Assembly: GCA_963749895.1 (NCBI GenBank)
Contig: CAVVOG010000003.1
Coordinates: 63,415 to 127,414 of the forward strand
DNA: 64,000 bases
Origin: an uncultured Actinomycetes bacterium
GTDB lineage: Bacteria > Actinomycetota > UBA4738 > HRBIN12
Direction of reading: 5' to 3'
The notes beneath the pieces are model-generated. The model saw only the letters and a program-made list of their open reading frames with translations. It was not told the DNA's origin and made no database searches. Of this stretch, positions 5,192 through 54,954 are shown in pieces. Each line of letters begins with the position of its first letter. The first letter of the stretch is position 1. The position numbers and the translations under genes were made by a program.

Positions 5192-5201
5192 GGTCTCGGT
5201 C

Positions 5202-6131: not shown

Positions 6132-6141
6132 CCGGCCGCCC

Positions 6142-7296: not shown

Positions 7297-7298
7297 GG

Positions 7299-11334: not shown

Positions 11335-11360
11335 CGCGGGACACGATACCGGCTCGTACC

Positions 11361-11366
11361 TATACT
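11361..11366 (+). promoter_or_regulatory. -10-like hexamer TATACT, 7 nt upstream of ATG 11374 (leaderless-type arrangement)
   Basis: Matches TANNNT. There is no Shine-Dalgarno sequence between the hexamer and the ATG. Confidence 0.4.
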
Positions 11367-11373
11367 GCGCCCC

Positions 11374-35033: not shown

Positions 35034-35347
35034 GAAGGCGCCTCTCGGTCTCGCTCAACATCTAACGCCTCAGCCGCCGGATCCGCTTAGGGCGCATCGA
35101 GGTTCGCCTAACTATCCTCTCCACTGGCCCATATCCGCCAGGCACATCCGGGAACGCAGGGGTCTACGGACGCCACCCCCGACGCCAACAAGACCTCGGT
35201 TCATGCGGATGTCAGCTCCGACGACGATGCGGCGTGTCTTCGTGATCGATGCCGGCTGTCGACGGGCCACGGGAGCGATGCGACCGGCGCATGGCGGTTC
35301 CCAAGTCTCTCGCCGTATATATGGCTCCATGATATGGTTCTACGGCG

Positions 35348-35584
35348 ATGAAGACGACGCTGAACCTGGACGACGAACTCCTGCGCGAGGCCAAGAAGAA
35401 GGCGGCCGAGGAGGGGACCACGCTGACGCGCGTCGTGGAGCAGGGTCTGCGCGCCGTGCTGAACGACGAGGAGCCACCGGCCGAACCGTACGTCTTCAAC
35501 TTCCCGACGATCGATGGGGGTACGCCCATGTTCGATGTCGCGGACCGAGATGCGCTGTACGACCTCTTCGACGGACGCACATGA
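35348..35584 (+). CDS. vapB: Type II antitoxin (VapB-like)
   Basis: 78 aa, MKTTLNLDDELLREAKKKAAEEGTTLTRVVEQGLRAVL. ATGA overlap with the PIN gene. Confidence 0.8.
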   Translation: MKTTLNLDDELLREAKKKAAEEGTTLTRVVEQGLRAVLNDEEPPAEPYVFNFPTIDGGTPMFDVADRDALYDLFDGRT

Positions 35585-36012
35585 TCGCCGTCGATACGAA
35601 CATCCTCGTCTACGCGCACAACACGGGGGACCCGCACCACGATCGTGCGCGCGGAGAGCTGCGCGCGCTGGTCGAGTCCGATGCAGCGTGGGGCCTCCCC
35701 GTGTTCGTCCTCGGTGAGTTCCTGCGCGTCGTCACGAACCGTCGCGGCCCCTTGCCCCACCCGAGCACACCCGCTGCGGCCATCGAGGCGATCGATGGCC
35801 TCCTGGCCAGCCCGAACGCGAAACTGCTCCTGCCCGGTCGCCGGTACCTGCCGCTGTTGCGGGGGCTCGTCGCCGACGTCCGCCCACGAGGCAACGAGAT
35901 CTTCGACGCACAGGTCGCGGCGGTCTGTCTCGAGCACGGCGCCACCACGATCTTGACGAACGACACGGACTTCCGGCAGTTCTCCGGCATCACCGTCAAG
36001 AGGCTCGGATGA
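35581..36012 (+). CDS. vapC: PIN-domain toxin VapC
   Basis: MIAVDTNILVYA (Asp), GEFLRV (Glu), FDAQVAAV (Asp) and TNDTDF (Asp). Confidence 0.85.
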   Translation: MIAVDTNILVYAHNTGDPHHDRARGELRALVESDAAWGLPVFVLGEFLRVVTNRRGPLPHPSTPAAAIEAIDGLLASPNAKLLLPGRRYLPLLRGLVADVRPRGNEIFDAQVAAVCLEHGATTILTNDTDFRQFSGITVKRLG

Positions 36013-38757: not shown

Positions 38758-39570
38758 ATGGAGCCCGACCGGATCGACCTGCCCTGGGGTCGGATGCGCG
38801 TGTGGAGAGGTGGGCATGGCCCCGCGCTGCTCGCGCTCCATGGGCTCGGAGGCTCCGGCCGCTATTGGCAGGGGCTCGAGGACCTCGTGGGGGACCGGTT
38901 CACGGTCGTCGCGCCCGACCTGCCGGGGTTCGGATCCTCCGACAAGCCGAAGGTTGTCTACGACCGACCGTTCCTCCTGGACGCGGTCGAGGCCGTCGCG
39001 TGGGATCTGGGTCCCACCGTCGTCGTGGGGCACTCGCTCGGGGGTGTGCTGGGGTTCCTGTGGGCGGCGCGGCATCCGCAACGGACCCGGGCCCTCAACC
39101 TCAGCGGTTCGCCGTTCCCCCAGCCCCGTCCCGACTGGGACCCGGCGCGGTGGGTGGGAGCGCGGCGCCTGGCCCCGGCGGTGGTCGGCGGGCTGGCCAA
39201 GGTCGGCTGGCCGCTGCTCAGCCTCCCGGCCCAGGCCTTCTCGAAGTACCCGGGGGCCGTGGTCCGTGATTACGGGCGGCAGACGATGCAGAGCCGCGCC
39301 TGGACCATGTGGTCCCTGTGGGCCGATCCGGCGCTCCGCGCGGAGCTCCCGGACCTGGCCGCTCGCCTAGACCCGGCCATGCCGATCCTCCTGGTACACG
39401 CCGCCGACGATCGGAGCGTCCGTCCGGACGCTATGGACGGATGGGCCGACGTGCTCCCGATGACACGTCGTGAGCTGCTGCCGGACGGCGGGCATCAGTT
39501 CCTGCTGCATCAGCGGTTCGCACCCCTGGGACCGTGGCTGGCCGAACACGCCGCCTTCGAACGGGACTAG
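38758..39570 (+). CDS. Alpha/beta hydrolase
   Basis: ALLALHGLGGSGRYW, and VVVGHSLGGVLG (GxSxG). The C-terminal GGHQFLLHQ could supply the His. Confidence 0.85.
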   Translation: MEPDRIDLPWGRMRVWRGGHGPALLALHGLGGSGRYWQGLEDLVGDRFTVVAPDLPGFGSSDKPKVVYDRPFLLDAVEAVAWDLGPTVVVGHSLGGVLGFLWAARHPQRTRALNLSGSPFPQPRPDWDPARWVGARRLAPAVVGGLAKVGWPLLSLPAQAFSKYPGAVVRDYGRQTMQSRAWTMWSLWADPALRAELPDLAARLDPAMPILLVHAADDRSVRPDAMDGWADVLPMTRRELLPDGGHQFLLHQRFAPLGPWLAEHAAFERD

Positions 39571-41984
39571 CCGCTCGACGCGCCGAGCGCGGTCCCGAGC
39601 ATGGCCGCGAACCGGTCGGCGGAGACCGGACGGCTGTAGCGGAACCCCTGGCCCAAGACGCATCCGTGCTCGAGCAGGAACCGCTCCTGCTCGAGCGTCT
39701 CGATGCCCTCGACGACGACGGTGAGCCCGAGCATCTCGGCGAGCATCACCATGGCGCGGACGACCGCCTCGTCCTGCGGTGTGCCGGGGAGGCGTCCCAC
39801 GAAGCTCCGGTCGATCTTCAGGAGGTCCGGGCGGAGGTCGGTGAGCCGAGACAACGACGACGCTCCGGTCCCGAAGTCATCGATCGCGAGTCCCACGCCG
39901 CCCGCTCGGAGTTCGTCCACGGCCTTCGCCGTGTGCGCGACGTCGGCCATCACCGTCGACTCGGCGAGCTCGACGACGATCGACGACGGTGTGACCCCCG
40001 CGGCGCGGACCTGGCGGAGGATCCTGCCGGCGAGGTCGGGCTGCCAGAACTCGCGCGGGGAGAGGTTGACGCTCACCCGCACGGGGGTGCCGTCCGCCTC
40101 CCAGGCTGCCACCTGTCGACAGGCCTCCTGGACGACCCATCGTCCCAGCGGCTCGATCAGCCCGAGCGTCTCCGCGAGCGGGATGAACCGGTCCGGCAAG
40201 ACCATGCCGGATCCGGGGTCGTCCCATCGGACCAGCGCCTCGGCGCCGACGATCGCGCCGGTCCGAAGGTCGACCACGGGTTGGTAGTGGAGGACCCATT
40301 CCTCGCGTTCGACGGCGCGGCGGAGCTTCGACGCGAGGCGCAGCCGCTCCTCGGGCGTCGAACCGCCGCCCGCATCGTGATCCCCGGCGAGCGTCACGGT
40401 GCCCGGTCCGCGGGCCTTCCCCTTCGTCCTGGCCTCGTCGGCGCGTCGTACCAGCTCGTCGGCCCCGGCCCCGTCGACCCCCAAGACGGCGACGCCGATC
40501 GTCGCGGAGAGGAACACCTCGACGGTCTTCACCAGGAACGGCTCGCGCAGCTGCTCCTGGAGGCGCCCGGCTGCCTGGAGCGCCGCGGCCTGAGGGGCCG
40601 CGGGGTCGAGGTCCTCCAACAGGACGAGGAACTCGTCGCCGCTGCTCCGCGCGAAGAGGTCGGTCGTCCGGATCGACGGCACCAGGCGTTCGACGACGGC
40701 ACGAAGGACCTCGTCGCCGGTCTCGTGCCCGAAGCTCTCGTTGACCAGGCGGAACAGGTCGAGCCCGATCGACAGGACGCCCACGGCATGGCCGCTCCGG
40801 CCGGCCCGGTGCATCGCGCGTTCGAGTTCCTCCTCGAACCGTTCCCGGGTCGGCAGGTCGGTGAGGCGATCGTGGTAGGCGAGGCGGGCGACCTCCGCCT
40901 CGGCCTCCTTGCGGGCGGTCACGTCCAGCATGAATCCCTGCCAGACGGTCTGACCGTCGGCCGTCTTCATCGGGATCGCCTCGTCGTGGATCCAGACGGT
41001 CCTCCCGTCGAGGGCGACCATCCGGTACTCGGAGACCAGCTGCACCCCGTCGCGCTTGGCGCGGTCCGATTCTTCGATCGCCCGTTCCCGATCCTCGGGG
41101 TGCACCAGCCTCGTCCACAGATCCGCGATCGTGGCCCAGTCGTGCATCGGATACCCGAGCATGCGTTCGATCCGCGGACTGATGTACGAGGGGATGGACG
41201 GTTCGGCCTCATCGGTGTCGAGGTACACCACGGCGGGGATCGCTTCGAGGAGCTGCCGGTAGCGCCTCTCGGCTTCGGTGAGTCGGTCCAGGGCCTGCCG
41301 CTGCTCGGTGACGTCGAACATCACCCCTTGCAGGAGCTCGGGTGCCCCGTCCTCGCCCGGGAGCACCTGGGCCTTCTCGGCGATCCACCGGACCGAGCCG
41401 TCCTTGGCGACGATGCGGTACTCGTCGGCCCACGCGGCGCCGTCCGCGGAGGCAGCCTCGTCCTTCGCGAGCATCCGTACGCGGTCGGCCGGGTGGAGCA
41501 TGCGCCGTTCCCACAGCGTGGGGTCGCTCGTCCACTCCTCGCTGGTGTAGCCGGTCAGTCGCTCCACCTGCGGGCTCATGTAGAGGGTTGAGCCCGCGAG
41601 GTCGTCGATGTAGGTCGCGGCCGGGATCTGTTCGACGAGACGACGGAACCGTGCGTCGGCGTCTGCGGAGGCCTCCGTGGCCTCGTCGACCCTCCGCCCG
41701 ATCACGACGCATCCCACGTCGGGGCCGCCGAGCGGGAGCGCGGTCCATCCCATGGTGACCTGCATACCGTCGACGTCGACCGACTCCGTGCGGAACGTGG
41801 AGCCGTGGCCCCCGCCCACGGGGAACGGGTCGATCCGTCTCCCGAGTTCGGGCGCGCCCCCCAGGAGCCGTCGATGCGCCTCGTTCGCCCAGACGACCGC
41901 CCCCGCCGCGTCGATCACCGCGGCGGGCACGTCGGCGCGGGACAGGAAGGAGCGCAGCTCGGGAGTGACGACGCCGTCGCTCAC
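39567..41984 (-). CDS. PAS-PAS-PAS-GGDEF-EAL c-di-GMP signalling protein
   Basis: Three PAS-like modules. The GGDEF domain has SGDEF preceded by RTTD at the I-site spacing. EAL-domain motifs are EALVRW, DDFGTG, KIDRSF and EGIET. Confidence 0.9.
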   Translation of the reverse strand: MSDGVVTPELRSFLSRADVPAAVIDAAGAVVWANEAHRRLLGGAPELGRRIDPFPVGGGHGSTFRTESVDVDGMQVTMGWTALPLGGPDVGCVVIGRRVDEATEASADADARFRRLVEQIPAATYIDDLAGSTLYMSPQVERLTGYTSEEWTSDPTLWERRMLHPADRVRMLAKDEAASADGAAWADEYRIVAKDGSVRWIAEKAQVLPGEDGAPELLQGVMFDVTEQRQALDRLTEAERRYRQLLEAIPAVVYLDTDEAEPSIPSYISPRIERMLGYPMHDWATIADLWTRLVHPEDRERAIEESDRAKRDGVQLVSEYRMVALDGRTVWIHDEAIPMKTADGQTVWQGFMLDVTARKEAEAEVARLAYHDRLTDLPTRERFEEELERAMHRAGRSGHAVGVLSIGLDLFRLVNESFGHETGDEVLRAVVERLVPSIRTTDLFARSSGDEFLVLLEDLDPAAPQAAALQAAGRLQEQLREPFLVKTVEVFLSATIGVAVLGVDGAGADELVRRADEARTKGKARGPGTVTLAGDHDAGGGSTPEERLRLASKLRRAVEREEWVLHYQPVVDLRTGAIVGAEALVRWDDPGSGMVLPDRFIPLAETLGLIEPLGRWVVQEACRQVAAWEADGTPVRVSVNLSPREFWQPDLAGRILRQVRAAGVTPSSIVVELAESTVMADVAHTAKAVDELRAGGVGLAIDDFGTGASSLSRLTDLRPDLLKIDRSFVGRLPGTPQDEAVVRAMVMLAEMLGLTVVVEGIETLEQERFLLEHGCVLGQGFRYSRPVSADRFAAMLGTALGASSG

Positions 41985-42097
41985 GGTGCCGCCTCGCCGT
42001 GCGGGGACGGGCGAACCAGCGTGGGGTTCACCCTCGAGGAATCGGTTCGGCCGGAAGCACCCTTGAGGGTCGCGGGGACCGTGTGGGCGGACCCCCC

Positions 42098-42103
42098 TAG
42101 ACT
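42098..42103 (+). promoter_or_regulatory. -10-like TAGACT, 6 nt upstream of GTG 42110 (leaderless-type pcrA start)
   Basis: CCTAGACT followed by 6 nt and the GTG, with no SD. Confidence 0.4.
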
Positions 42104-42109
42104 GGCCGG

Positions 42110-44386
42110 GTGAACGCGGTCTCGCCCCTGCTCGAGGGGCTCAACGACATCCAACGCGAGGCGGTCCTCCACACGGAGGGACCGGTCCTGATCGTGGCGG
42201 GCGCCGGGAGCGGCAAGACGCGGGCCCTCACCCACCGGATCGCGCACCTGATCCGCGGGAAGGGCGTCTCGCCCTACGAGATCTTGGCGATCACCTTCAC
42301 GAACAAGGCGTCGCGCGAGATGGCCGAGCGCGTCGAGTCGCTGGTCGGGTCGGGGATCGCGAGCGGGATGTGGATCCTCACGTTCCACTCGACCTGTGCC
42401 CGGATCCTCCGCCGGGAGCACGAGCACCTCGGCGTTCCCTCCGGCTTCACGATCTACGACGACGGCGACACGGAGCGGCTGATCGCCGGGATCGGCAAGG
42501 ACCTGGACATCGACCCGAAGAGGTTCCCGCCGCGGCAGCTCGCGGCCGCGATCGGCAAGGCGAAGGATCGGGTGCTCGGCCCCGACGACCTGGCCGCGAT
42601 GGCCTCGAACTTCTACGAGGAGATCGTCGCGAAGGTGTACCGCGCGTACGAGGTGCGCAAACGGGAGGCGGGCGCCCTCGACTTCGACGACCTGATCAGC
42701 GAAACGGTCCGGCTGTTCCGCGACCACCCCGAGGTCCTTCGTCACTACCAGGAACGGTTCACGTACCTGCTGGTCGACGAGTACCAGGACACCTCGCGTG
42801 CCCAGTACGAGCTGGTGAACCTCCTCGCGGCGCGTTCCCGCAACCTGTGCGTCGTGGGCGACGCCGACCAGGGGGTGTACTCCTGGCGAGGCGCCACGAT
42901 CCAGAACATCCTGGACTTCGAGCGCGACTTCCCCGACGCACAGGTCTTCCTGATGGAGCAGAACTACCGCTCCACCGGGAACATCCTCGACGTCGCGAAC
43001 GCGCTGATCGAACGCAACACCCTGCGCAAGCCGAAGACGCTGTGGACCGACGCCGCCGCGGGCGAGCTCGTCGTCAGCTTCCGTGCGAACGACGAGCACG
43101 AAGAAGCGCTGTTCGTGGCGTCGGAGATCGAGCGCCTCCGCGACGAGGAGGGCTACCGCTTCCGCGACGTGGCGGTGTTCTTCCGGACGAACGCGCAGGC
43201 CAGGGTGGTCGAGGACGTGTTCATGCGGGTCGGCATGCCGTACAGGGTCTTCGGCGGGGTCCGTTTCTACCAGCGCAAGGAGATCAAGGACGTCGTCGGG
43301 TACCTGCGTCTGCTGGTCAACCCGCAGGACGTGATCTCGTTCCGCCGGGTCGTGAACATGCCGAAGCGCGGGATCGGCGATGCGACCGTCGCGGCGCTCG
43401 AGTCGTTCGCCCGCCAGGAGGGGATCGACGTCGTCGAGGCCTGCCGTCGCGTCGACGAGATCGACGTGCTGCAGAACCGAGCGAAGGGCGCGGTCGCCGG
43501 CTTCACGCAGGTGATGACGGCGCTCCGCGCGCATCTCGACGACGGCGCCGGGCCGGCGCGGATGATCGAGTTCGCCGCGCAGGAGTCGGGATACCTGGCG
43601 GAGCTCGAGGACGATCGCTCGATCGAGTCGCAAGGCCGGATCGAGAACCTGCAGGAGCTCGCCGGTGTGGCCATGGAGATCGCGGCGCGCGATCCGGAGG
43701 TCGACCTCGAGGGTGTCCTCGAACAGGTCTCGCTCGTGGGGGAGCAGGACGAGTACGACGAGGATGACTCCTCCGTCACCTTGATGACCCTGCACATCGC
43801 GAAGGGCCTCGAGTTCCCGGTCGTGTTCATCGTGGGGATGGAGGACGGGATCTTCCCGCACTTCCGTTCGATGACCGACCAGCACGAGCTCGAGGAGGAG
43901 CGGCGCCTCGCCTACGTGGGGATCACCCGAGCGCAGCAACGCCTGTACCTGACCCACGCCTGGAGCCGGACCCTCTTCGGCCAGACGAACTTCAACCCGC
44001 CCTCGCGGTTCCTCGGCGAGCTGCCGCAGCACCTGATCGACGTCCGCGAGTCGGAGCTCCGGCAACGGACGCCCTCGCGGTACGGGGGAGGGTCGTCGAG
44101 CGGGAGCCGGGCGAGCGGCGGCGGGTACTCGGTGGTGGGGCTCCCCGGTCGCGAGCGGGAGGTCGCCGTCACGCCGGGATGGACCCCGCCGCAGCCGGCG
44201 GGGGTGCCCAAGCGAGAGGCCCCCGCGATCGCACCCGGCGACACGGTGATGCACGATCGCTTCGGCGAGGGTGTGGTCCTGACCGTGAGCGGCCAGGGCG
44301 ACGACGCCGAAGCGCGGGTCGCCTTCAGCGAGGTGGGCGAGAAGACGCTGCTCCTGGCCTACGCCCCTCTGAAGAAGATCGGCTGA
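42110..44386 (+). CDS. pcrA: ATP-dependent DNA helicase PcrA/UvrD
   Basis: LNDIQREAV, AGAGSGKTRALTHRIAHL, LLVDEYQDTS, VGDADQGVYSWRGA, QNYRST, TLHIAKGLEFPVVF and RRLAYVGITRA. Confidence 0.95.
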   Translation: MNAVSPLLEGLNDIQREAVLHTEGPVLIVAGAGSGKTRALTHRIAHLIRGKGVSPYEILAITFTNKASREMAERVESLVGSGIASGMWILTFHSTCARILRREHEHLGVPSGFTIYDDGDTERLIAGIGKDLDIDPKRFPPRQLAAAIGKAKDRVLGPDDLAAMASNFYEEIVAKVYRAYEVRKREAGALDFDDLISETVRLFRDHPEVLRHYQERFTYLLVDEYQDTSRAQYELVNLLAARSRNLCVVGDADQGVYSWRGATIQNILDFERDFPDAQVFLMEQNYRSTGNILDVANALIERNTLRKPKTLWTDAAAGELVVSFRANDEHEEALFVASEIERLRDEEGYRFRDVAVFFRTNAQARVVEDVFMRVGMPYRVFGGVRFYQRKEIKDVVGYLRLLVNPQDVISFRRVVNMPKRGIGDATVAALESFARQEGIDVVEACRRVDEIDVLQNRAKGAVAGFTQVMTALRAHLDDGAGPARMIEFAAQESGYLAELEDDRSIESQGRIENLQELAGVAMEIAARDPEVDLEGVLEQVSLVGEQDEYDEDDSSVTLMTLHIAKGLEFPVVFIVGMEDGIFPHFRSMTDQHELEEERRLAYVGITRAQQRLYLTHAWSRTLFGQTNFNPPSRFLGELPQHLIDVRESELRQRTPSRYGGGSSSGSRASGGGYSVVGLPGREREVAVTPGWTPPQPAGVPKREAPAIAPGDTVMHDRFGEGVVLTVSGQGDDAEARVAFSEVGEKTLLLAYAPLKKIG

Positions 44387-45914: not shown

Positions 45915-45927
45915 GGGGGTCTCCTCC

Positions 45928-46092
45928 TCAGCCGAACAGCGCGAAGTACCCGGCGACCACGATCACGACGCCGGCGACGATCGGGGCGATCACCCAGGCG
46001 AGCCCCAGGCGGCCGCGGTAGGGGCCGAGGGTGCCGACCTTCGTCGTCGGCTTCAGGCCAGGCGGGCGGATCGTCACCTTCTTTCGCGCCAT
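45928..46092 (-). CDS. Small (54-aa) basic single-pass membrane protein, below the ORF-track cutoff
   Basis: Hand translation: MARKKVTIRPPGLKPTTKVGTLGPYRGRLGLAWVIAPIVAGVVIVVAGYFALFG. The stop lies 13 nt upstream of the 45914 start. Only weak RBS evidence was seen. Confidence 0.4.
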   Translation of the reverse strand: MARKKVTIRPPGLKPTTKVGTLGPYRGRLGLAWVIAPIVAGVVIVVAGYFALFG

Positions 46093-46133
46093 CGGGGCCA
46101 GTCTACGGAGCCGAGCCGGCGCAGCGAGCCGGG

Positions 46134-46304
46134 TACGGGGGGAACGACTATCTCGACGGCGGGAAGGGCGACGACTTCCTGTTCGGTGGGCCCGGGGCGG
46201 ACGTGCTCGTGACGAAGGACGGATCCGGTGGTGACACGGCCGACGGCGGCAAGGGCGTCGACCTGTGTCGGACCGACGCGGGGGACACCCGGGTGAGCTG
46301 CTAG
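46134..46304 (+). pseudogene. 3' relic of an RTX-like Ca-binding repeat gene (no start codon)
   Basis: YGGNDYLDGGKGDDFLFGGPGADVLVTKDGSGGDTADGGKGVDLCRTDAGDTRVSC* aligns with the C-terminus of 33090..33662 (..DTLRGGAGTDNCLKDAGDTAATCE*). No in-frame ATG or GTG lies upstream after 46093. Confidence 0.55.
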
Positions 46305-46311
46305 TCGCTCC

Positions 46312-47640
46312 TCACCCGCTCACCCGATAGAGGCGCCAGCGGTCGGGCACACCCTTGAGCTCGTGCTCGCCCGCGTCCTCGAACGTGAGCCCGGCGCCCG
46401 CCGTGAGGTCCTTCACGGTCTGCGACACGAGGACCTCGGACGCGGTCGCCATCGCCCCGACGCGGGCGCCGATCGTGACGGCGAGACCGCCTGCCTTCCC
46501 GGCGATCGTTTCGACCTCGCCCGTGTGGGCGCCGGCTCGGATCTCCAACCCGAGCGGCCGGACGGCCTCGACGATCGCCTGCGCGCAGCGGACCGCGCGG
46601 GCCGGGCCGTCGAACGTCGCGAAGAACCCGTCGCCCGCGGTGTCGACCTCTACCCCCCGGTAGCGGGTCAGCATCGCGCGGACGATCGCGTGGTGCCGCT
46701 CGACCAGCCCACCCCAGATGCGGTCGCCGAGTTCGGCCTCCGTGCGGGTCGAATCCACGATGTCGGTGAACAGCACCGTGGCGAGGACGCGGTCGAGGAC
46801 GGCCTCCTCTTCCTGGATCTCCGCGATGAACCGGGCCACGCTGCGCAGGATGCCGTCTGACCTGCCGTACCAGTGGAGCCAGTTCGGGCCGCCGGGGTCG
46901 GGGATCTCCTCGAGCCGAGCGCCCGGGATCCGTTCGGCTGCGAAGCGCCCGCTCGGCGTGGCGTCACCGCCGTCGGGGTCGATCAGGATGAGCGTGGGGG
47001 TGGACACGGTGGGCAGCACCGGCCGGATGTCGGCGTCCATGAACCGGCCGAGTTCCGCCGCCAGCGCTCCCGGGGCGATCGACGCCCGAACGAACCGTTC
47101 GAACCAGTCGCGCTCGGGGTGCTCGGGCGGTCCTCTCCACCACTGAGACAGCGGGTACTCCTCGCGGAACCCCCGGGCCCAGGCGTCGAACTCCACCCGG
47201 GACCACATCCAGGGGGTGTCCTCGGTCCGACCGAACGTGATCGTCGGATCGCACAGGATCAGACCACGCACCCGATCCGGATACGTCGCGGCGAACAAGA
47301 TCGCGAGCGGGACGCAGTCCACCGAGGCGAAGATCACCGGCCGCGACGCCCCGGTCGCGTCCAGCAGGACGAGCAGGTCGTCGGTCATGTCCTCGAACGG
47401 CGGCACGTCCGTGGGGGAGAAGCGGTCCGAGCAGCCCCACCCCCGGCGGTCGGCAGGGATCAGCCGCGTTCCGCTCGCGAGCCCGCGCAGGAACGAGGCG
47501 AGGTAGGGGCTGTCCCACGCCAGGTCGACGTGGGAAGCCCACCCCTGGAGGTAGACGAGGTCGGTCGGACCGTCACCCAGCACCTGGTACGCGAGCGCGA
47601 CGTCACCGTTCCACGCGTAGCGGGTCGTGGGGATCTCCAC
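46312..47640 (-). CDS. LipJ-like alpha/beta-hydrolase-fold + class III adenylate/guanylate cyclase fusion (copy 1, intact)
   Basis: N-terminal TRYAWNGDVALAYQVLGDGPTDLV. Cyclase-domain motifs LFTDIVDST, TAGDGFFATFDG, RAGAHTGE and ELKGVPDRWRLYRV. GTG start. Confidence 0.85.
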   Translation of the reverse strand: MEIPTTRYAWNGDVALAYQVLGDGPTDLVYLQGWASHVDLAWDSPYLASFLRGLASGTRLIPADRRGWGCSDRFSPTDVPPFEDMTDDLLVLLDATGASRPVIFASVDCVPLAILFAATYPDRVRGLILCDPTITFGRTEDTPWMWSRVEFDAWARGFREEYPLSQWWRGPPEHPERDWFERFVRASIAPGALAAELGRFMDADIRPVLPTVSTPTLILIDPDGGDATPSGRFAAERIPGARLEEIPDPGGPNWLHWYGRSDGILRSVARFIAEIQEEEAVLDRVLATVLFTDIVDSTRTEAELGDRIWGGLVERHHAIVRAMLTRYRGVEVDTAGDGFFATFDGPARAVRCAQAIVEAVRPLGLEIRAGAHTGEVETIAGKAGGLAVTIGARVGAMATASEVLVSQTVKDLTAGAGLTFEDAGEHELKGVPDRWRLYRVSG

Positions 47641-47701
47641 GGTCGAATCCTGCGCCGCACGAGGGGTCCTCGCAAGGGCCTACGGATCCGCGCTGAACGG
47701 A

Positions 47702-49681
47702 TCAGCGGTCCGAGGTGGTTGATCGCGGGGAGTCGTGGTCGACGACGAGATCGGCCAGGTTCGCCGACGTCTTGCCGAACTCCCACCACCCGCAGACCCA
47801 GGGTTTCACGGCCGCCAGGCTGCGCCCGTAGACCAGCGGGATCACGGCCACCTCGTCGACGACCGCCATCCGATCGGCCTGGTGGAAGAGCTCGAGGCGA
47901 CCGTGGTCGCTCCGCTCCTGGCGTGCCCGCTCGATCAGGTCGTCGAAGTCCGGACACACGAAACCGCCCTCGTTCGTCCGGCTCTTGGAGTGGAACAGCA
48001 GGCGCAGGATGTACTCGGGATCGGCGTACCCCGGGAGCCACCCCGTGAAGTACACGGGGGCATGGTCGACGGGCGGCGGCATCGTCGCGACCTCCGCTCG
48101 TCCCCAGGTCCGGAGCTCGACCGTGAGGCCGAGCACCTCGCGCCACGAGGCCAGGACCGGTTCCAGCAGGGATCGGTCCTCGTCGAGGCACGCCACGGCG
48201 ATCGTCACGGAGGGGTCCGGCAGGATCGACCGCGCGACGTCGGGGTCGTAGCCGAGGCAGATGTCCGGCGTGTGTCCCTGCAGGGCAGGAGGGACGATCC
48301 CGCCGTTCGCGGCGACGAGGTTCGACGGGAGCGCCGCGGCGAGCGCCGCGCGGTCGACCGCGTGGGCCAGGGCCTTGCGCACGCGGACGTCCCCGACGAC
48401 CGGGTCGGTGTGACGGAACGCGAGGTAGCCCGACCACGCGGGTGGACCGATGCGCGGATCGGGGAAGTCCCGGGGGGCGAGGTCGGCGACGCGCGGCGTG
48501 TAGCGCACCGTGACGAGGTCGAGCTCGTCAGTCGCGTACCTTGCCACGGCGTCGTCGACCGTCATCGCCACGAACTCCACGCGGCCCGCGTTCCCGTGGC
48601 GGACCGTGTTCACCCGGTCGCGCCGCGTCAGCACGAGCCGGGCCGGCGCACGCTCCTCGATCTCGAACGCGCCCGAAACGACCTGTCGGCCGTCCACCCA
48701 GCCGTCGCCCCGCTCGGAGATCGCGTGTCGCGGCTGCGGGCCGCCGTCGGGCCGGTTCATCACACTCAGGAAGTACGGCGCCGGCGCGACCAGGCGGAAC
48801 TCGACGGTCCGATCGTCCAGCGCCCGGACGCCGACCGTCGAGGGGTCGGTCTGCTCGCCCAGGTAGTACTCGAGGCCGTTCTCGAGTACGAAGTAGACCG
48901 CGACGGAGGACCCGGGCGTGGCCGGGTCGAGGACCCGCTTGATGCCGAACTCGACGTCGTGCGCGGTGAGCGGCGTGCCGTCGGACCACGTGAGATCGGG
49001 CCTGAGGTGGAACACGTAGCGGAGGCCGTCGTCGGCGATCTCCCACCGCTCCGCGAGGGAGGGGACGATCGTCCGCTCGGGCCACTGCTCCACGAGCCGA
49101 TCGAAGAGCTGCATGCAGAGCTGGATGTTCGGCCAGGCGATCGCGGACCTGGGATCCGGGTCGTCCGGCAGGAAGCTCGTCGCCACGCGGAGCGTCGCCT
49201 CGGCGGGGACGGCCGGAGGAGGAGCCGGGGTCCACAGCGGGAACGCCCGCTGGTACGCGGTGTTCGCCTCCTCGAACCGGAGCGACATGTGGAGGGCGAG
49301 TGCCAGCTTGAACAGGACGAGCGCCATCTGCTGGCGCTGCTCGCGGCGCTCGAGGAGCGTCAGGAGCTCCCGGTAGTGCGCCACGGCCTCGTCGAGCGCG
49401 TAGGCGAGCCTCGCCTGGTCGCCCGCGAGCGTGAGGTAGTGGATCGCCTTGTCTTCGTCCCCGGCGCCGATCCAGTGGTGGGCGAGCAGGCCGGCTCCCT
49501 CGTGCTCCCTCCCGGCGGCGCGCTGCTCCAGCCACTCGGCGGCCCGGCGGTGGAGCCGGGCATGGTCCTCGTGGAGCAGCGTGCGGTAGGCGGTCTCCTG
49601 GATCAGGGCGTGCTTGAACCGGTACTCGGTCTCCGGCCAGCGCCGACCTTCCCGGACGAGGTCGAGTCGCATCAGCTCCAC
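47702..49681 (-). CDS. N-terminally truncated regulator remnant (post-ATPase helical/TPR-like region) fused to a cytoplasmic SBP family-5 domain
   Basis: YRFKHALIQETAY, RLHRRAAEWLE and DKAIHYLTLAGDQA are typical of the region after the AAA domain in cyclase/LuxR-type STAND regulators. A full SBP_bac_5-like domain follows (LAERWEIADDGLRYVFHLRPDLTWSDGTPLTAHDVEF ...). There is no signal peptide. GTG 49681 is only the first possible start. Confidence 0.55.
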   Translation of the reverse strand: MELMRLDLVREGRRWPETEYRFKHALIQETAYRTLLHEDHARLHRRAAEWLEQRAAGREHEGAGLLAHHWIGAGDEDKAIHYLTLAGDQARLAYALDEAVAHYRELLTLLERREQRQQMALVLFKLALALHMSLRFEEANTAYQRAFPLWTPAPPPAVPAEATLRVATSFLPDDPDPRSAIAWPNIQLCMQLFDRLVEQWPERTIVPSLAERWEIADDGLRYVFHLRPDLTWSDGTPLTAHDVEFGIKRVLDPATPGSSVAVYFVLENGLEYYLGEQTDPSTVGVRALDDRTVEFRLVAPAPYFLSVMNRPDGGPQPRHAISERGDGWVDGRQVVSGAFEIEERAPARLVLTRRDRVNTVRHGNAGRVEFVAMTVDDAVARYATDELDLVTVRYTPRVADLAPRDFPDPRIGPPAWSGYLAFRHTDPVVGDVRVRKALAHAVDRAALAAALPSNLVAANGGIVPPALQGHTPDICLGYDPDVARSILPDPSVTIAVACLDEDRSLLEPVLASWREVLGLTVELRTWGRAEVATMPPPVDHAPVYFTGWLPGYADPEYILRLLFHSKSRTNEGGFVCPDFDDLIERARQERSDHGRLELFHQADRMAVVDEVAVIPLVYGRSLAAVKPWVCGWWEFGKTSANLADLVVDHDSPRSTTSDR

Positions 49682-49739
49682 GAGGGCCGCGCGGACGTCG
49701 GCCTCGTCGGTGACGGCATCCAGGAGCGGCTGTCGGAAC

Positions 49740-50037
49740 GAGCGCCCGGACCGCGGCGGTCTCGATGCGACCGCGCGGGAGGTTGTCGATCCGCGTCTCC
49801 AGTGAGGGGGATCTGCGCGTCGGGGACCCGTCGGACAGGCCGACGCTCACGCTTGTCGAACAGGATCAGGCGCGAGAACGTCGCGAGGCGCGTGAGGAAC
49901 CGGGCGAGGTTCGGCTCCTCCAATCACCTCGATGTTGCGGGCCCATCCCATGACCCAGACCAGATCCACCTGGGCGCGGTCGCCGCGACCTGGCGCGCGA
50001 TGTGCACCCCGTCGGCGGCGCGCGCGTGACGCGTCAC
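49740..50037 (-). pseudogene. Decayed 5' third of a LipJ-like paralogue (copy 2), multiple frameshifts, abutting the 47702..49681 ORF
   Basis: Three frames carry consecutive homologous pieces: VTRHARAADGVHIARQV, then DLVWVMGWARNIEV, then LARFLTRLATFSRLILFDKR, then GLSD...LETRIDNL. A GTGA junction with the upstream copy lies at 50034-50037. Confidence 0.55.
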
Positions 50038-51383
50038 GGGCACCGCGTCACGACCCGGTAGAGGCGCCAGCGGTCCGGAACACCTTTCAGCTCGTGCTCG
50101 CCCGCGTCTTCGAACGTGAGATCCGAGCCGGCGACGAGGTCCTTCACCGTCTGCGACACGAGGACCTCGCCCGCGCCCGCCGTCGAGGCGACGCGAGCCC
50201 CGATCGACACCGACAGTCCCGAGCACTTGTCGTCGACCACCTCGCACTCACCGGTGTGGAGCCCTGCCCGAAGCTGGATCCCGAGCGTGCCGACGGCGCG
50301 GACGATCTCCTGTGCGCACGCCACCGCTCGGGCGGGCCCATCGAACCGGACGTAGAAGCCGTCGCCGGCCGTGTCCTGCTCGATCCCCCGGAACCGAGCG
50401 ATCAGGTCCCGGATCAGCGCATGATGGCGTCGGACGAGGTCGGCCCAGCCACGGTCTCCGAGCTCGGCCTGCATCGGGGTCGAGTCCACGATGTCGGTGA
50501 AGAGCACGGTCGCCAGGATGCGATCCGGCTCGTGGGCGCGGCCGAGCGAGGTCACGAAGTCCCGAACCAGCGCCATCGTCCGCCCGTGCGTCCCGTCATC
50601 GAGCCACGTGTAGTCCCCGCGCATGTCGGGAAGCTCGCGGATCTGGACGTCCGGGATCCGCCCCGCGAAGTACTCGGCGGGTCCTCGCTGTGCGGGCGAG
50701 AAGAGGATCAGCGTCGGGACGCGCACTGCGGCGAGGACCTCGGTGACGTCCGATTCCATCGCGGCCCGGAAGAAGGCGGCGGCAGCGCCGGGACTCAAGC
50801 TCCTGCGCATGTGGGTCACGAACCAGTCCTGGAACGACGGATCGGCCGGTGCCTCGGGGACCCGTTCTTCGAGGAGCCGGAGGAAGTACTCGCGCCGACC
50901 CCAGTTCGCGCGCACGTCGTTCAGGCGCGCCATCCACACGTCGTGCGTCTGGGCCCACGGGTAGTCGTCGCTCGGCAAGGCCTTCGCCGATGGATCGAGC
51001 AGCACGAGCCCGAGGGTCCGCTCGGGGTAGGTCGCGGCGAACAGCGTGGTCACGTGGGTGCCCTCCTGTCCGCTCCACAGGACGGCCTGTTCGGTGCCCT
51101 CCGCGTCCATCACCGCGCGGACGTCGTCCATCCGGGTCTCGAGCGTCGGCATCCCCGTGACCCGATCCGACAGTCCCGTACCGCGCTTGTCGAGCATGAG
51201 CAGCCGGCCGTTCGAGGCGAGTCCTTCGATGTGGCGGACCAGCAGCGGCTGATCCCAGGCAGAGAGCAGGTCGCCCGTGAAGCCGCGGACGAAGACGATG
51301 TCGGGACGGCCGTCCCCGACGACCTGGTAGGCGATGCTCACGTCACCGCTCTTCGCGTAGCGGACGTCGGGGATCTCGGTCAT
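50034..51383 (-). CDS. LipJ-like hydrolase-fold + class III cyclase fusion (copy 3, intact)
   Basis: ATG 51383 (MTEIPDVRYAKSGDVSIAYQVVGDG). Motifs LFTDIVDST, TAGDGFYVRFDG and ELKGVPDRWRLYRV. The ORF is open to 51485. Confidence 0.85.
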   Translation of the reverse strand: MTEIPDVRYAKSGDVSIAYQVVGDGRPDIVFVRGFTGDLLSAWDQPLLVRHIEGLASNGRLLMLDKRGTGLSDRVTGMPTLETRMDDVRAVMDAEGTEQAVLWSGQEGTHVTTLFAATYPERTLGLVLLDPSAKALPSDDYPWAQTHDVWMARLNDVRANWGRREYFLRLLEERVPEAPADPSFQDWFVTHMRRSLSPGAAAAFFRAAMESDVTEVLAAVRVPTLILFSPAQRGPAEYFAGRIPDVQIRELPDMRGDYTWLDDGTHGRTMALVRDFVTSLGRAHEPDRILATVLFTDIVDSTPMQAELGDRGWADLVRRHHALIRDLIARFRGIEQDTAGDGFYVRFDGPARAVACAQEIVRAVGTLGIQLRAGLHTGECEVVDDKCSGLSVSIGARVASTAGAGEVLVSQTVKDLVAGSDLTFEDAGEHELKGVPDRWRLYRVVTRCP

Positions 51384-51430
51384 CTCAACCCCACCACCCG
51401 GTGGAGGCGCCAGGTGTCGGGGACGCCCTT
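51380..51430 (-). pseudogene. 16-codon relic of a cyclase-domain 3' end (KGVPDTWRLHRVVGLR*)
   Basis: Hand translation. The stop overlaps the ATG of copy 3 (ATGA), as at other array junctions. The DNA contains CCCGGTGGAGGCGCCAGGTGTC, a variant of the 22-mer shared by all copies. Confidence 0.5.
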
Positions 51431-51496
51431 CGGCTGGCTCGTCATGACCGGGGGAGCGTAGTCCGAGGCACCGAACGCGCGCCATCCCTGAGTCGC

Positions 51497-52225
51497 CTAG
51501 GGAGCGAGCTCGTCTTCGTCAACCGCCCGGTGAAGCACGACCGTCGGGGCGTAGATCACGGGCAGGACCTGCCGAACGTCGGTGTCCATCCAGACCGCAT
51601 CGAATGCCCCCATCTCGGCGGGCGTGATCGCGTACCGGAGGCTGCGCGCCCACCATCGGCTGAAGTCGGGGTCGTCGCCCATGGCACCGATGTCCCCTGA
51701 GACCGACGCGATCTGCTCGGGCGTCGGATCGGGCGTGTTCCAGAGCTGCCACATCGAGGCCTGGAACTCCTCGTTCTCTGTCGCGGTCGCCCCCCATGGG
51801 TAATCCTCGGCCCAGGCCGTGCGGAGGATCGGATTGAACAGTGCGAGAGCCGTGACGCGTTGCGGGAAGGCCGCCGCGAACATCGACGCGGCGGCGGCCC
51901 CGTCGGCCATCGTGAAGGGTGCCGCTCGTTCCAAGCCCGCGGCATCGAGGATCGTCCCGAGGTCCTTCACGCGCCGCTCGAGCGTCAGCATCGCGCCCGC
52001 CCTGCCCGAGAGCCCCGTCCCCCGACCGTCGAACTCCACGAGGCGCGAGAACGAGGACAGCCCACGGTAGAGGCGGCGCGTGCCCTCCCACTCCCCGAAC
52101 ACTTCCATCGCGCCGATGTACGCGTGAACGAGGACGAGGTCGGCCGGTCCACCCTCGAAGAGCTGGTACGCGAGGTCGACCCCGTCCGACGTGCGCACGT
52201 AGCGTGTCTGCGGCATCCGCTCCAC
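51497..52225 (-). CDS. LipJ-like paralogue (copy 4) reduced to the hydrolase-fold domain (cyclase deleted)
   Basis: MERMPQTRYVRTSDGVDLAYQLFEGGPADLV ... ends ..VVLHRAVDEDELAP*, where the other copies continue into linker and cyclase. The relic at 51380-51430 marks the lost 3' end. Confidence 0.6.
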   Translation of the reverse strand: MERMPQTRYVRTSDGVDLAYQLFEGGPADLVLVHAYIGAMEVFGEWEGTRRLYRGLSSFSRLVEFDGRGTGLSGRAGAMLTLERRVKDLGTILDAAGLERAAPFTMADGAAAASMFAAAFPQRVTALALFNPILRTAWAEDYPWGATATENEEFQASMWQLWNTPDPTPEQIASVSGDIGAMGDDPDFSRWWARSLRYAITPAEMGAFDAVWMDTDVRQVLPVIYAPTVVLHRAVDEDELAP

Positions 52226-52226
52226 G

Positions 52227-53573
52227 TCAGCCCACCACCCGGTAGAGGCGCCAGCGGTCGGGAACGCCCTTGAGTGCGTGCTCGCCGGCGTCCTCGAAGG
52301 TGAGGCCGGATCCGGCGGTCAGGTCCTTCACCGTCTGGGAGACGAGCACCTGCGAGGGACCGGCCAGCGCGCCCACGCGGGCGCCGATCACCACGCCGAG
52401 GCCGGCGACGTCGTCGCCCTCGATCGTGACCTCGCCGGTGTGCAACCCCGCCCGTACCTCGATCCCGAGCGGGCCGACCGCCGCCGCGATCGCCGTCGCG
52501 CAGCGCACCCCTCGTGCCGGCCCGTCGAACGTCGCGAGGAACCCGTCGCCCATCGTCTTGACCTCGCGTCCGCGGTAGCGAGCGATCTGCGAGCGCACGA
52601 TCTGATCGTGACGAGCGCGAACGTCTCGCCAGCCGGCATCACCGAGCGCGGCCGCCTGCACGGTGGAGTCGACCACGTCCGTGAACAGCACCGTCGCGAG
52701 GACGCGGTCGAAGTCCGCCTGCTCGACGCGGAGCGACTCGACGAACGCCGCGATGTGGGGGACCAGATCGTCGAGGGGGTAGACGTGGTCCTCTCCCGGG
52801 AGCTCCACGATGCGCGCCCCGGGGGTGTGCTCCGCGGTCCACCGCCCCTCGGCCACCTTCGTGAAGCGGTCGCCGGTCCGGTGCAGCACGAGCGTCGGCG
52901 CCTGGACGGACGGGAGGATGTGGCGGACGTCGGTCTCCATCACCGCGCGATCACGGGCGATCGCGTCCCCCGGGCTGGCGGAAAGCCGGAGCAGCCGACC
53001 GAACGCTCGGACGGCGGTCTCGTCGTGCCGCAGCGACGGCGAGAGGTCCTCGACCAATTCTCGGACGAAGGCGTCGGTGCCCCACGCACGCTCGATCCTG
53101 TCGATGTACTCCTCGTACATCTCCCGGCTCCAGGACCCGGGGTAGTCGGGCGCCGGTGTCCCGCGCGGCATCGGCGCCTGCACGATCACGCCGGACGTGC
53201 GTTCCGGGTGCGTCGCGGCGAACATGAAGCAGAGCGCCGCGCCGCTCTCGATCCCGAACACGAACGCACGCTCCGACGACGCTGCGTCCATCACGGCGCG
53301 GATGTCGTCCATCTGCGCCTCGATCGTGGCGGCCTCGCCGGTCCACGAACGGTCCGACGTGCCGCTGCCACGCCGATCGAAGATCAACACCCGGCCGATC
53401 GAGGCCAAGCCCCGAACGAACGAGACGAACGGGGGGAAGTCCCAGGCGGCTTCGATGTTGGAGTAGTCGTACGGGACGAACACGATGTCCACGGGACCGG
53501 AGCCCACCACCTGGTAGCCCACGTGGATCCCGTCCGCCGCGCGCGCGTACCGCGTCTCGGGGGCTCGGGTCAC
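52227..53573 (-). CDS. LipJ-like hydrolase-fold + class III cyclase fusion (copy 5, intact)
   Basis: GTG 53573 (TRAPETRYARAADGIHVGYQVVGSGPVDIV). Motifs LFTDVVDST, TMGDGFLATFDG and ALKGVPDRWRLYRVVG. Confidence 0.85.
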   Translation of the reverse strand: MTRAPETRYARAADGIHVGYQVVGSGPVDIVFVPYDYSNIEAAWDFPPFVSFVRGLASIGRVLIFDRRGSGTSDRSWTGEAATIEAQMDDIRAVMDAASSERAFVFGIESGAALCFMFAATHPERTSGVIVQAPMPRGTPAPDYPGSWSREMYEEYIDRIERAWGTDAFVRELVEDLSPSLRHDETAVRAFGRLLRLSASPGDAIARDRAVMETDVRHILPSVQAPTLVLHRTGDRFTKVAEGRWTAEHTPGARIVELPGEDHVYPLDDLVPHIAAFVESLRVEQADFDRVLATVLFTDVVDSTVQAAALGDAGWRDVRARHDQIVRSQIARYRGREVKTMGDGFLATFDGPARGVRCATAIAAAVGPLGIEVRAGLHTGEVTIEGDDVAGLGVVIGARVGALAGPSQVLVSQTVKDLTAGSGLTFEDAGEHALKGVPDRWRLYRVVG

Positions 53574-54895
53574 GACGTCACCCGGTAGAGGCGCCAGCGG
53601 TCGGGGACGCCCTTCAGCTCGTGCTCGCCGGCGTCCTCGAAGGTGAGTCCGGAGCCTGCGGTGAGGTCCTTCACGGTCGAGGAGGCCCAGACCTCGGAGG
53701 TCCCCGCCATCGATGCGACCCGCGCGGCCACGTGCACGCCGATCCCAGCGAGGTCGTTACCGCCGTAGGTGATCTCGCCGGTATGGACCCCGGCCCGTAC
53801 GTCGACGCCGTGGGTCCTCATCGCGTCGCCGAAGGCTTGGGCGCACCGGACCGCCCGGGCGGGACCGTCGAACGTCGCGAGCATGCCGTCGCCGGTCCCG
53901 CGGACGAACGTGCCACGGAATCGTGCCACGGTCGCCTTCGCGACGGAGTCGTGCGTTCTCGATCAGGGCTCGCCACTTCGTGTCGCCCATGATCGCCGCG
54001 GTGGCGGTCGAGTCGACGATGTCGGTGAACAGCACCGTCGCGAGGACCCGGTCCAGTTCAGCCTCCTGCTCGCGTATCGAGGTCAGGAACCGCTCGACGG
54101 CCCTGAGGTTGTCATCGGTGCCGGCGAGATAAGGGGGGTGGTCGGGCTGGCTCGGGACGACCACGATCTCGGCTCCGGGTATCGCGGCCGCCATCCGCTC
54201 CGCGTCCGGCAGCTGTTCGTCGTCGGGCTGCAGGATCTGGGTGGGCACGTGGATCGAGCCGAGGATCCCGCCGAATCGGTCTCGACGAACACCCGGCTAT
54301 TCGCGAGCGCATCACCCCGGCTGGCGGCGTTGCGCATGATTCGGGCCCACCGCCGAACCGCGACGGGGTCGCCGGCCGGTGTTGGGGCTCCCATGAGCGC
54401 GAGGAGCGGGCCGGCCGCATCCTCCTCGCCCCACGATGCCTCGAGCATCCGGTCGTAGGCGTCAAGCTCCTCGTTCGTGTCTCCACCGCGCCCCGACGTC
54501 TCCGCTCTCCACAGGAGCAGGCCGGCGGTCCGGTCCGGGTACGTCGCCGCGAACATCGCGCAGATCGCGCCCCCGTCGACCCCTTGGCCGTACAGGACCG
54601 GCCGGTCGCTGCCCGCCGCGTCGAGCACCGCTCGGATGTCGTCCATCTTCGTCTCGAGGTTGACCGTCTGGGTCATCCGGTCGGACAACCCGCCGCCCCG
54701 CTGGTCCAGCGTGATCACGCGGGAGAACCGCGCCAGCGAACGGAGCCACCCGCCTACGTCGGGGTCCTCCCAGAACAGCTCGAGGTGAGAGATCGCGGGC
54801 CACGCGACGAGCAAGTCCGGCCCGGTGCCGAACACCTGGAACGCGATGTACGTACCGTCGGCGCTCTGCGCGTACCGGGTCTTCGGGGTGTCCAC
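53570..54895 (-). pseudogene. LipJ-like paralogue (copy 6) with two frameshifts
   Basis: Homology runs through three frames, with shifts near 54278 (after ..VFVETD) and near 53954 (..ALIEN/HDSV..). The last segment, 53570..53929, encodes an intact cyclase C-half. Likely start is GTG 54895 (VDTPKTRYAQSADG). Confidence 0.65.
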
Positions 54896-54954
54896 CTGCG
54901 CATCGTGCCCTCGGATGACGGATACCTGCAAGTGGGTTCGGGTATCGCCTTCGT

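Follow-up and report, generated by a model that had tools for sequence, protein, structure and literature searches.

Six divergent LipJ/Rv1900c-type cyclase genes in a probably old, operon-like and partly eroded array of an uncultured actinomycete

The closest described counterpart of the genes discussed here is Rv1900c (LipJ; PDB IDs 1YBT and 1YBU), which is encoded by a single gene in Mycobacterium tuberculosis and combines an N-terminal alpha/beta-hydrolase fold with a C-terminal class III cyclase domain, whereas the 64-kb stretch of DNA analyzed here (the window, from contig CAVVOG010000003.1 of an uncultured Actinomycetes bacterium) carries an array of six such genes, named c1 to c6. LipJ is listed as a characterized esterase in a review (PMC10865251). 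For Ma1120 from Mycobacterium avium (4WP3), a class III domain without a hydrolase-fold domain, K101 and D157 have been experimentally defined as the adenine-specifying residues (PMC4215837). Class III cyclases have also expanded in certain lineages, with 16 members in M. tuberculosis and larger sets in other mycobacteria and in rhizobia. The array resembles these lineage-specific expansions in that many paralogous cyclases with diverse sensor domains occur per genome (PMC2447327, PMC3961136); it differs in that their genes are described as scattered and as differing in architecture, whereas here a single architecture is repeated in adjacent genes that are, judging from their layout, translationally coupled.

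We consider it likely that the paralogues of the array, which are of the LipJ/Rv1900c type, diverged long ago and form a long-lived cluster with an operon-like layout, which occupies a variable slot in the high-GC (guanine plus cytosine) genome of a soil member of the Actinomycetota.

Layout, divergence and turnover of the array

Searches with tblastn, using the intact copies as queries, and a scan with a family hidden Markov model (HMM) find six mutually homologous stretches at 46315-54895, all on the minus strand, and none elsewhere in the window, which has a GC content of about 70% throughout. Together with the Pfam matches, this confirms the proposal of an initial annotation, made before the present analysis, that the minus strand carries a head-to-tail row of six LipJ/Rv1900c-like genes at 46312-54895 (Table 1). 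The copies c1, c3, and c5, rightly described there as intact, are complete open reading frames (ORFs) of 442-449 amino acids (aa) that combine the hydrolase fold (Abhydrolase_1/Hydrolase_4) with Guanylate_cyc. The copy c4 matches the hydrolase domain only, and in c6 the hydrolase and cyclase domains are spread over three ORFs, with both halves recoverable. The best PDB match for the cyclase domain of c5 is Rv1900c (1YBT, E = 1.1e-50 over 158 residues), followed by Ma1120 (E = 2e-25), and for the N-terminal half the matches are to esterases and to hydrolase-fold proteins of the KAI2/D14/RsbQ group. The Pfam domains and the structural match agree with the LipJ-like domain architecture that had been proposed, and on these grounds c1, c3, and c5 can be assigned to the LipJ/Rv1900c type of cyclase genes. 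The sequence motif said to be common to all copies holds only loosely, since c5 has ALKG, c4 has DTWRLH, and c2 lacks the C-terminus.

Table 1. Features of the LipJ-type array in the window
Feature	Position	Strand	Description	Evidence
c1	46312..47640	-	442 aa; intact LipJ-type; triad positions V-G-W; pair Asp/Lys (reversed)	ORF, Pfam
21-mer in c1 3' end	46324..46344	-	Encodes DRWRLYR; 1 mismatch, TAT for Tyr	
STAND remnant	47702..49779	-	5'-truncated Cyclase-AAA_16-TPR-SBP_bac_5 gene, full type about 1210 aa; longest ORF 47702-49681, 659 aa	
c2::STAND junction	49780..49802	-	CTGGAGACGCGGAT / CGACAACCT	Three-way alignment with L087 c2 orthologue and L087 STAND gene
c2	about 49780..50037	-	LipJ-type stump, first approximately 87 codons of hydrolase fold; GTG start overlaps c3 stop (GTGA)	
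c3	50034..51383	-	449 aa from ATG 51383, ORF extends to 51485; triad Q-Q-Y; pair Asp/Lys	
c4 tail remnant	51380..51496	-	About 26 residual codons, then KGVPDTWRLHRVVGLR and stop; TGA overlaps c3 ATG (ATGA)	
c4	51497..52225	-	242-aa ORF, hydrolase-fold N-terminal part; premature TAG 51497-51499	
c5	52227..53573	-	448 aa; triad E-D-H, Glu at nucleophile position; canonical Lys/Asp adenine-specifying pair	
c6	53570..54895	-	Frames -1/-3/-1; ORFs 54083-54931, 53757-54248, 53570-53929	
21-mer sisters	50055-50075 (c3), 51398-51418 (c4 tail), 52239-52259 (c5), 53582-53602 (c6)		3 mismatches in the c4 tail	

On the minus strand the junctions read as the initial annotation had given them, with GTGA at 50034-50037 and 53570-53573, ATGA at 51380-51383, and TGA-C-GTG at 52223-52229, which leaves a gap of 1 nucleotide (nt). 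The layout thus has the marks of an operon, namely, a common strand, no intergenic gaps, and start/stop overlaps, and the 4-nt overlaps suggest co-transcription and translational coupling. The earlier claim of a single operon is therefore well founded for the layout, from which co-transcription would follow.

The copies themselves are far apart. Protein identity is 45-51% among c1, c3, c5, and c6 and 31-35% for c4, the 300 nt that are best conserved show a DNA identity of 68-76%, and the longest shared exact runs, of about 20-27 nt, fall at a motif near the 3' end. Synonymous codon identity along the genes stays at the codon-bias baseline and rises mildly only toward the 3' end. Relatives were ranked in a set of 214 family members, and for c4 also against the protein database. 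As relatives of any given copy, the other copies in the window rank only 18th to 214th. The best relative elsewhere is 67% identical for c1 (nearest other window copy at rank 42), 74% for c3 (rank 18), 62% for c6 (rank 68), 71% for c2 (rank 108), and about 40% for c4 (rank 91), for which the protein database holds matches of 54-64%. For c5, more than 120 database clusters (55-92% identity, the best being 92%) are nearer than any copy in the window. Neither of the two hallmarks of a recent tandem array is found, that is, neither copies that are mutually closest relatives nor high nucleotide identity with long identical tracts. Because each copy is nearer to genes in other genomes, the six appear to represent six distinct old orthologous subfamilies, with no recent duplication among them. 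The initial annotation had explained the array by tandem duplication of a single unit and had itself made this depend on the copies being each other's closest relatives; the ranking came out against it, at least for a recent duplication, as every copy has closer relatives elsewhere.

The family is very large, comprising 4,901 clusters at 50% identity (E ≤ 1e-30), and gives more than 600 pattern matches in species-representative genomes, mostly from soil Actinomycetota, Gaiellaceae, and Thermoleophilia metagenome-assembled genomes. The loci of the family mostly hold one copy within ±10 kb, while about one-eighth hold two to four. Further arrays are found at the loci L026 (four copies), L023 (three copies and a fragment), and L004 (a metagenome contig with at least four copies), as well as at L016, L001, L085, and L021. 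Within these arrays, identity between copies is 44-62%, and the junctions show the same ATGA/GTGA overlaps. Because arrays in other genomes show the same divergence and the same overlaps, operon-like rows of divergent paralogues appear to be a recurrent organization in the LipJ-type family, the window's six forming the longest row seen here. The statement that a six-fold expansion is unusual for signalling enzymes was overstated, given the size of the family and the arrays of two to four copies elsewhere.

The nearest syntenic locus, L087, belongs to a relative (sucD-sucC-B12 … DMFA2_C-pcrA), and its flanks are 83-89% identical to those of the window at the nucleotide level (synonymous divergence, dS, of about 0.46). 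Between the flanks, L087 carries a disrupted c6, two copies without an orthologue in the window, a near-complete c2, a full-length gene of the STAND type, c1, and a Crp-like gene, whereas the middle of the window's array consists of c5, c4, and c3. In a more distant syntenic locus, L088, the STAND gene is the only one present. Because the middle copies of L087 are different, gain, loss, and replacement at the array slot are real, although no recent duplication is visible. Of the ongoing birth and death proposed earlier, the decay of three copies and the turnover relative to L087 are supported, and a recent duplication is not.

The Crp-like gene of L087 (13711-14373) encodes a Crp-family regulator (cNMP_binding and HTH_Crp_2) and begins on the final base of the c1 orthologue, making a cyclase-receptor pair. 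A Crp remnant was looked for in the window and none was found. A general link of LipJ-type genes to a Crp-like receptor for cyclic nucleotide monophosphates was ruled out, as the combination is seen only in L087 and L010.

Broken copies and the fusion of c2 to a STAND-type gene

The decay of three copies, c2, c4, and c6, appears to be real. The reference for c4 is P0243, a metagenomic protein of the c4 type with 64% identity to c4, which has a full cyclase domain (PF00211) and ends in …KGVPDTWRLYRVVG, matching the c4 tail. This tail lies in the same frame as the c4 ORF, 26 codons past the TAG. Since P0243 is full length, with the cyclase domain and a matching tail, c4 has apparently lost about 180 codons (approximately 0.5 kb) internally, comprising the end of the hydrolase fold and nearly the whole cyclase domain, and the deletion ends upstream of the retained C-terminal tail. 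The earlier observation that c4 lost its cyclase is borne out by this comparison, with the addition that c4 kept its own C-terminus, and the loss of an essential domain relative to the full-length P0243 marks c4 as a probable pseudogene.

The copy c2, which the initial annotation had called shredded and abutting another gene, is indeed a stump without 80% of its length. It is about 90% identical at the nucleotide level to the orthologue in L087, from which it differs by at least five small indels (+2, -2, +1, -1, +1), and its subfamily includes L023_8650, L021_4495, and L004_377 (66-71% aa identity). The abutting gene needs a correction, being a truncated seventh cyclase gene of the STAND type. 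Its remaining ORF shows Pfam matches to SBP_bac_5 (E = 9e-56) and TPR. Homologues of about 1210 aa have the architecture Guanylate_cyc (PF00211), AAA_16 (PF13191), (TPR), and SBP_bac_5 (PF00496), and more than 100 carry it in full. The remnant aligns to residues 524-1213 of one of these, P0122 (1214 aa), with 77% identity over the linker, the TPR, and SBP_bac_5. The first approximately 520 codons are gone, and with them the cyclase and P-loop NTPase domains, so that the remnant falls outside the full architecture of the P0122 subfamily, from which it also differs in being fused to the c2 stump. Mycobacterial Rv0386-type relatives end in a LuxR helix-turn-helix domain, not in a solute-binding domain such as that of this subfamily.

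In L087, c2 and the full-length STAND gene adjoin each other. At the junction in the window, the left side comes from c2 (…LETR M/I D…) and the right side from the STAND gene (…AR IDNLP…), giving an in-frame …LETR-IDNLP…, and the microhomology GGAT(n)GAC is common to both parents. Relative to L087 (7530 to 10194), about 2.65 kb are lost. The junction is best explained by a microhomology-mediated in-frame deletion, which would have created a chimeric ORF that additional indels subsequently disrupted; another frameshift is found directly beyond the fusion junction. The domain losses relative to L087 and P0122 identify both c2 and the STAND remnant as probable pseudogenes. The locus L088 was considered as a carrier of the same STAND truncation and ruled out, as the upstream coding sequence of the NTPase is kept there and its 654-aa ORF is a frameshift fragment.

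A similar neighbourhood of the two cyclase types is seen on L004, the contig of a 92% orthologue of c5, where positions 4509-8733 hold three LipJ-type genes, a MazE/PIN toxin-antitoxin pair, a gene for a 1184-aa protein, and a further LipJ-type gene. The 1184-aa protein has the architecture zinc-ribbon-cyclase-AAA_16-TPR, and cyclase islands mixing both architectures thus recur.

The two frameshifts reported earlier for c6 are present as a -1 and a +1 indel. The first is a 1-nt deletion within 54267-54283 (GAGACCGA/TTCGG), as seen in the alignment to the intact homologue L043 (62% identity), and the second is a 1-nt insertion within 53948-53960 (GAGAAC/G/CACGAC), where L087 is in frame. The original frame contains stops between the two sites, and the two indels compensate each other. 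By its disrupted frame relative to L043 and L087, c6 would be a pseudogene in the assembled sequence. The ratio of nonsynonymous to synonymous substitution rates (dN/dS) against L087 is unusable for c6 and for sucC on account of frame disruptions in L087.

Predicted properties of the cyclase and hydrolase domains

The c1 orthologue at the same position in L087 is 80% identical in aa sequence, and the nearest relatives of c3 are found at L046 (74%), L032 (69%), and L026_10001 (68%). Orthologues of c5 with 91-92% aa identity (dS of 0.35-0.46) occur in quite different genomic neighbourhoods. The dN/dS values are 0.22 for c1 and 0.13-0.14 for c5, compared with 0.07-0.08 for pcrA and DMFA2_C, and both c1 and c5 are under purifying selection. 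The gene upstream of the c5 orthologue in L001 was considered as a c6 orthologue and rejected, having only 35-41% identity.

The two metal-binding Asp residues, the transition-state Arg, and the phosphate-binding Lys of ELKG are present in c1, c3, c5, and c6 and are invariant in all 214 family members. Rv1900c likewise has the two Asp residues and the Arg, together with an …ELKGVPxRWRL tail, and a residue other than Asn stands at the position of the catalytic Asn both there (H402) and in the window (T/S/V/H). The copies differ from Rv1900c in the substrate-specifying pair, whose positions follow from an alignment free of gaps relative to GDGF and GAR and to K101/D157 of Ma1120. In Rv1900c this pair is N342/D395, whereas it is K/D in c5, D/K in c1 and c3, and R/D in c6. 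The two positions covary almost perfectly among 215 family sequences, 90 of which have K/D and 88 have D/K, and D/K is also found in 51 of the 72 singletons of the genome scan. The Lys and Asp of c5 align without gaps to K101 and D157 of Ma1120, and since this is the canonical adenine-specifying pair, c5 is predicted to be an adenylate cyclase. The reversed combination of c1 and c3 falls outside the mutational study of Ma1120, the literature searched contained no description of it, and it does not allow the nucleotide preference of c1 and c3 to be predicted. All three intact copies are expected to be soluble, active cyclases of about 48 kDa, whose cyclase domains would dimerize head to tail and make a cyclic nucleotide.

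In the hydrolase fold, the nucleophile position holds Glu (c5), Gln (c3), Val (c1), or Asp (c4 and c6), and c1 and c3 also lack the His. The Ser-Asp-His triad with a GxSxG elbow that characterizes serine esterases and lipases is absent from the intact copies; S-D-H is seen only in the subfamily of c2, which in the window is a stump. The array differs in this respect from the esterase LipJ, the alignment to which covers the cyclase domain only. An E-D-H triad is present in 73 of 215 family members, Ser stands at the nucleophile position in about 23%, and triads of the Q-N-H and D-D-H types are found as well. The residues of the intact copies suggest that their hydrolase fold is not a serine hydrolase and most likely serves as a regulatory or ligand-sensing module.

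Class III cyclases function as obligate dimers whose active sites lie at the interface, and the recurrent adjacency and coupling of anciently diverged paralogues might be kept because they form heteromeric cyclases or because one operon delivers different second messengers, with the hydrolase folds as ligand sensors. We regard this as rather unlikely, if conceivable. In the second-messenger variant, K/D copies of the c5 type would make cyclic AMP (cAMP), and D/K copies of the c1 and c3 type, the form dominant in the family, would prefer a different purine, e.g., GTP; in both variants the non-catalytic folds, with E-D-H, Q-N-H, or fully degenerate triads, would sense ligands. The mixing of K/D and D/K copies within arrays was examined as a hint to heterodimers and showed no consistent pattern. 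If heterodimers or a mixed output of cAMP and cyclic GMP were real, this would bear on how dimeric cyclases diversify.

Alternative readings and the surroundings of the array

If a single LipJ-like unit had recently been amplified in tandem, with subsequent birth and death through recombination between short repeats, this would account for the common strand, the repeated junction architecture, and a 21-mer, CCGGTAGAGGCGCCAGCGGTC, which occurs five times with up to three mismatches (at 46324, 50055, 51398, 52239, and 53582, against none expected by chance). The initial annotation had proposed this repeat, as a 22-mer, as a recombination substrate, and its five occurrences hold, each 1 base to the right of where it had been placed. 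The 21-mer is primarily coding sequence of the conserved DRWRLYR tail, and the CGG GTG that follows could provide a Shine-Dalgarno-like GGGTG for the overlapping start of the next gene. Codon bias by itself accounts only in part for the nucleotide identity of the 21-mer: 11 homologues at other loci encode the same peptide, all with different 21-nt sequences, and the exact 20-mer is found in only 1 of 86 loci, whereas c3, c5, and c6 agree at each of the six degenerate codons (P about 8e-5 given the codon usage of the window, a figure calculated post hoc). The 21-mer is also present in the five copies of L087, two of which, not adjacent to each other, share an R-to-H codon change. Codon identity in the 21-mer block is 0.70 within loci and 0.53 between loci, compared with 0.54-0.63 and 0.48-0.58 in four control blocks. 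These figures are a modest sign of short-tract homogenization or of a constraint on the nucleotide sequence at the gene junctions. For gene conversion at the 3' motif the signal is only moderate, and it was not adopted as an established explanation. For the array as a whole, the low protein identity (31-51%), the baseline synonymous identity, and the much closer orthologues elsewhere make a recent amplification highly improbable, and the deletions seen do not use the repeats as substrate, as neither has an endpoint in a 21-mer, with c2::STAND joined in a 4-nt microhomology and the c4 deletion lying upstream of the tail. We therefore retain the reading of an old cluster, whose ultimate origin is taken up below.

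Two other explanations concern the broken copies. The frameshifts of c6 and c2 could have arisen as errors of base calling or polishing in an assembly of long metagenomic reads, in which case the array would consist mostly of intact genes. The source contig of 1.65 Mb does suggest long reads, all lesions in c6 and c2 are indels of 1-2 nt, with the c6 pair compensating each other, and housekeeping genes are split in L087, a related long contig. In the window, however, the approximately 50 other genes are uninterrupted, the remainder of the sequence consisting of long ORFs with a high GC content at third codon positions (GC3), including pcrA, sucC, sucD, purH, guaA, and folD. The indels are moreover clustered (at least five in 260 nt of c2, and two in c6) and lie mostly outside long homopolymers. 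The two large deletions, which removed 80% of c2 and the cyclase of c4, stand regardless; they join unique sequences and for this reason are not artefacts of repeat collapse. Assembly error is accordingly an unlikely explanation of the lesions, and c6 has an equally small chance of being intact in reality. Quite unlikely, too, is the notion that the truncated products are functional, with c4 as a stand-alone hydrolase-fold protein and the 659-aa TPR-SBP_bac_5 ORF as a new ligand-binding protein. Both ORFs are open with gene-like GC3, c4 was called as a 239-aa protein by the gene caller of the source collection, and the STAND remnant has a dN/dS of 0.17 against L087. This low value would mostly reflect the time spent as an intact gene, however, and the first codon of the remnant is an internal GTG that lacks a recognizable start context and has a frameshift just upstream, the similar-looking ORF in L088 being only a fragment of a longer gene. 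The c4 product ends at its premature TAG before the His-bearing C-terminal part of the fold and is strongly diverged, with best matches of 54-64%.

Some points nevertheless weigh against an old cluster of active, co-expressed cyclase genes eroded by real lesions. L087, its closest comparator, has indel errors or mutations of its own (split sucD and split STAND), and the single-base frameshifts of c6 and c2 are established at the level of the assembly. The splits in L087 at 720-1591 (sucD) and 8664-12295 (STAND), and likewise in L088 at 9900-10000, suggest indel errors in those assemblies. A scan of the array for sigma-70 promoters and for terminators gave nothing above background, a result that is uninformative for an actinobacterium of 70% GC. 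At the catalytic Asn position the residue is non-canonical, T, S, or V in the intact copies and H in c6; cyclase activity of the intact copies is assumed by analogy with Rv1900c, whose equivalent H402 was reportedly dispensable in the hands of Sinha et al. in 2005. Finally, ancient tandem duplication may be the ultimate origin of such arrays.

The array lies between guaA … pcrA-DMFA2_C on one side and the gene for a B12-binding mutase subunit-sucC-sucD … purH-folD on the other. At 46095-46304 on the plus strand, 69 codons of RTX calcium-binding nonapeptide repeats (HemolysinCabind, E = 1.6e-8) converge on the c1 stop; they terminate a long ORF that otherwise looks spurious and are probably a gene fragment. 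A 54-aa ORF with a hydrophobic C-terminal helix and no Pfam match is located upstream of the DMFA2_C gene (45926-46090, minus strand), and its DNA sequence is conserved in both L087 and L088. Beside pcrA, an 857-aa PAS-GGDEF-EAL protein for the turnover of cyclic di-GMP is encoded at 39570-42140 (minus strand), a site at which L087 carries a Hydrolase_4 gene instead, so that the flank is variable, too. The segment 32200-36000 has a GC fraction of 0.65, compared with about 0.70, and is possibly an acquired island; it holds genes for an extracytoplasmic function-type sigma factor (34545-35033, minus strand) and a PIN-domain protein (35203-36012, plus strand) and adjacent ORFs without Pfam matches. 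An Rfam scan of the whole window indicated no RNA family.

The LipJ-type family is very common, and the array would be an old, slowly eroding cluster, otherwise ordinary and partly dead. It would show how a bacterial signalling-gene cluster can age with no new duplication taking place, by way of small indels in c6 and c2, the loss of about 0.5 kb from within c4, and an in-frame microhomology deletion of about 2.65 kb that fused c2 to the STAND gene, while its middle members are swapped and its membership turns over between related genomes. The analysis also brings out a very large, uncharacterized radiation of LipJ-type genes in soil actinobacteria, with mostly non-serine hydrolase domains, a charge-swapped substrate pair, and putatively coupled arrays of divergent copies. 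The reversed pair, the non-serine folds, and the coupled arrays, as predicted here, are worth a test at the bench and are not yet a discovery.

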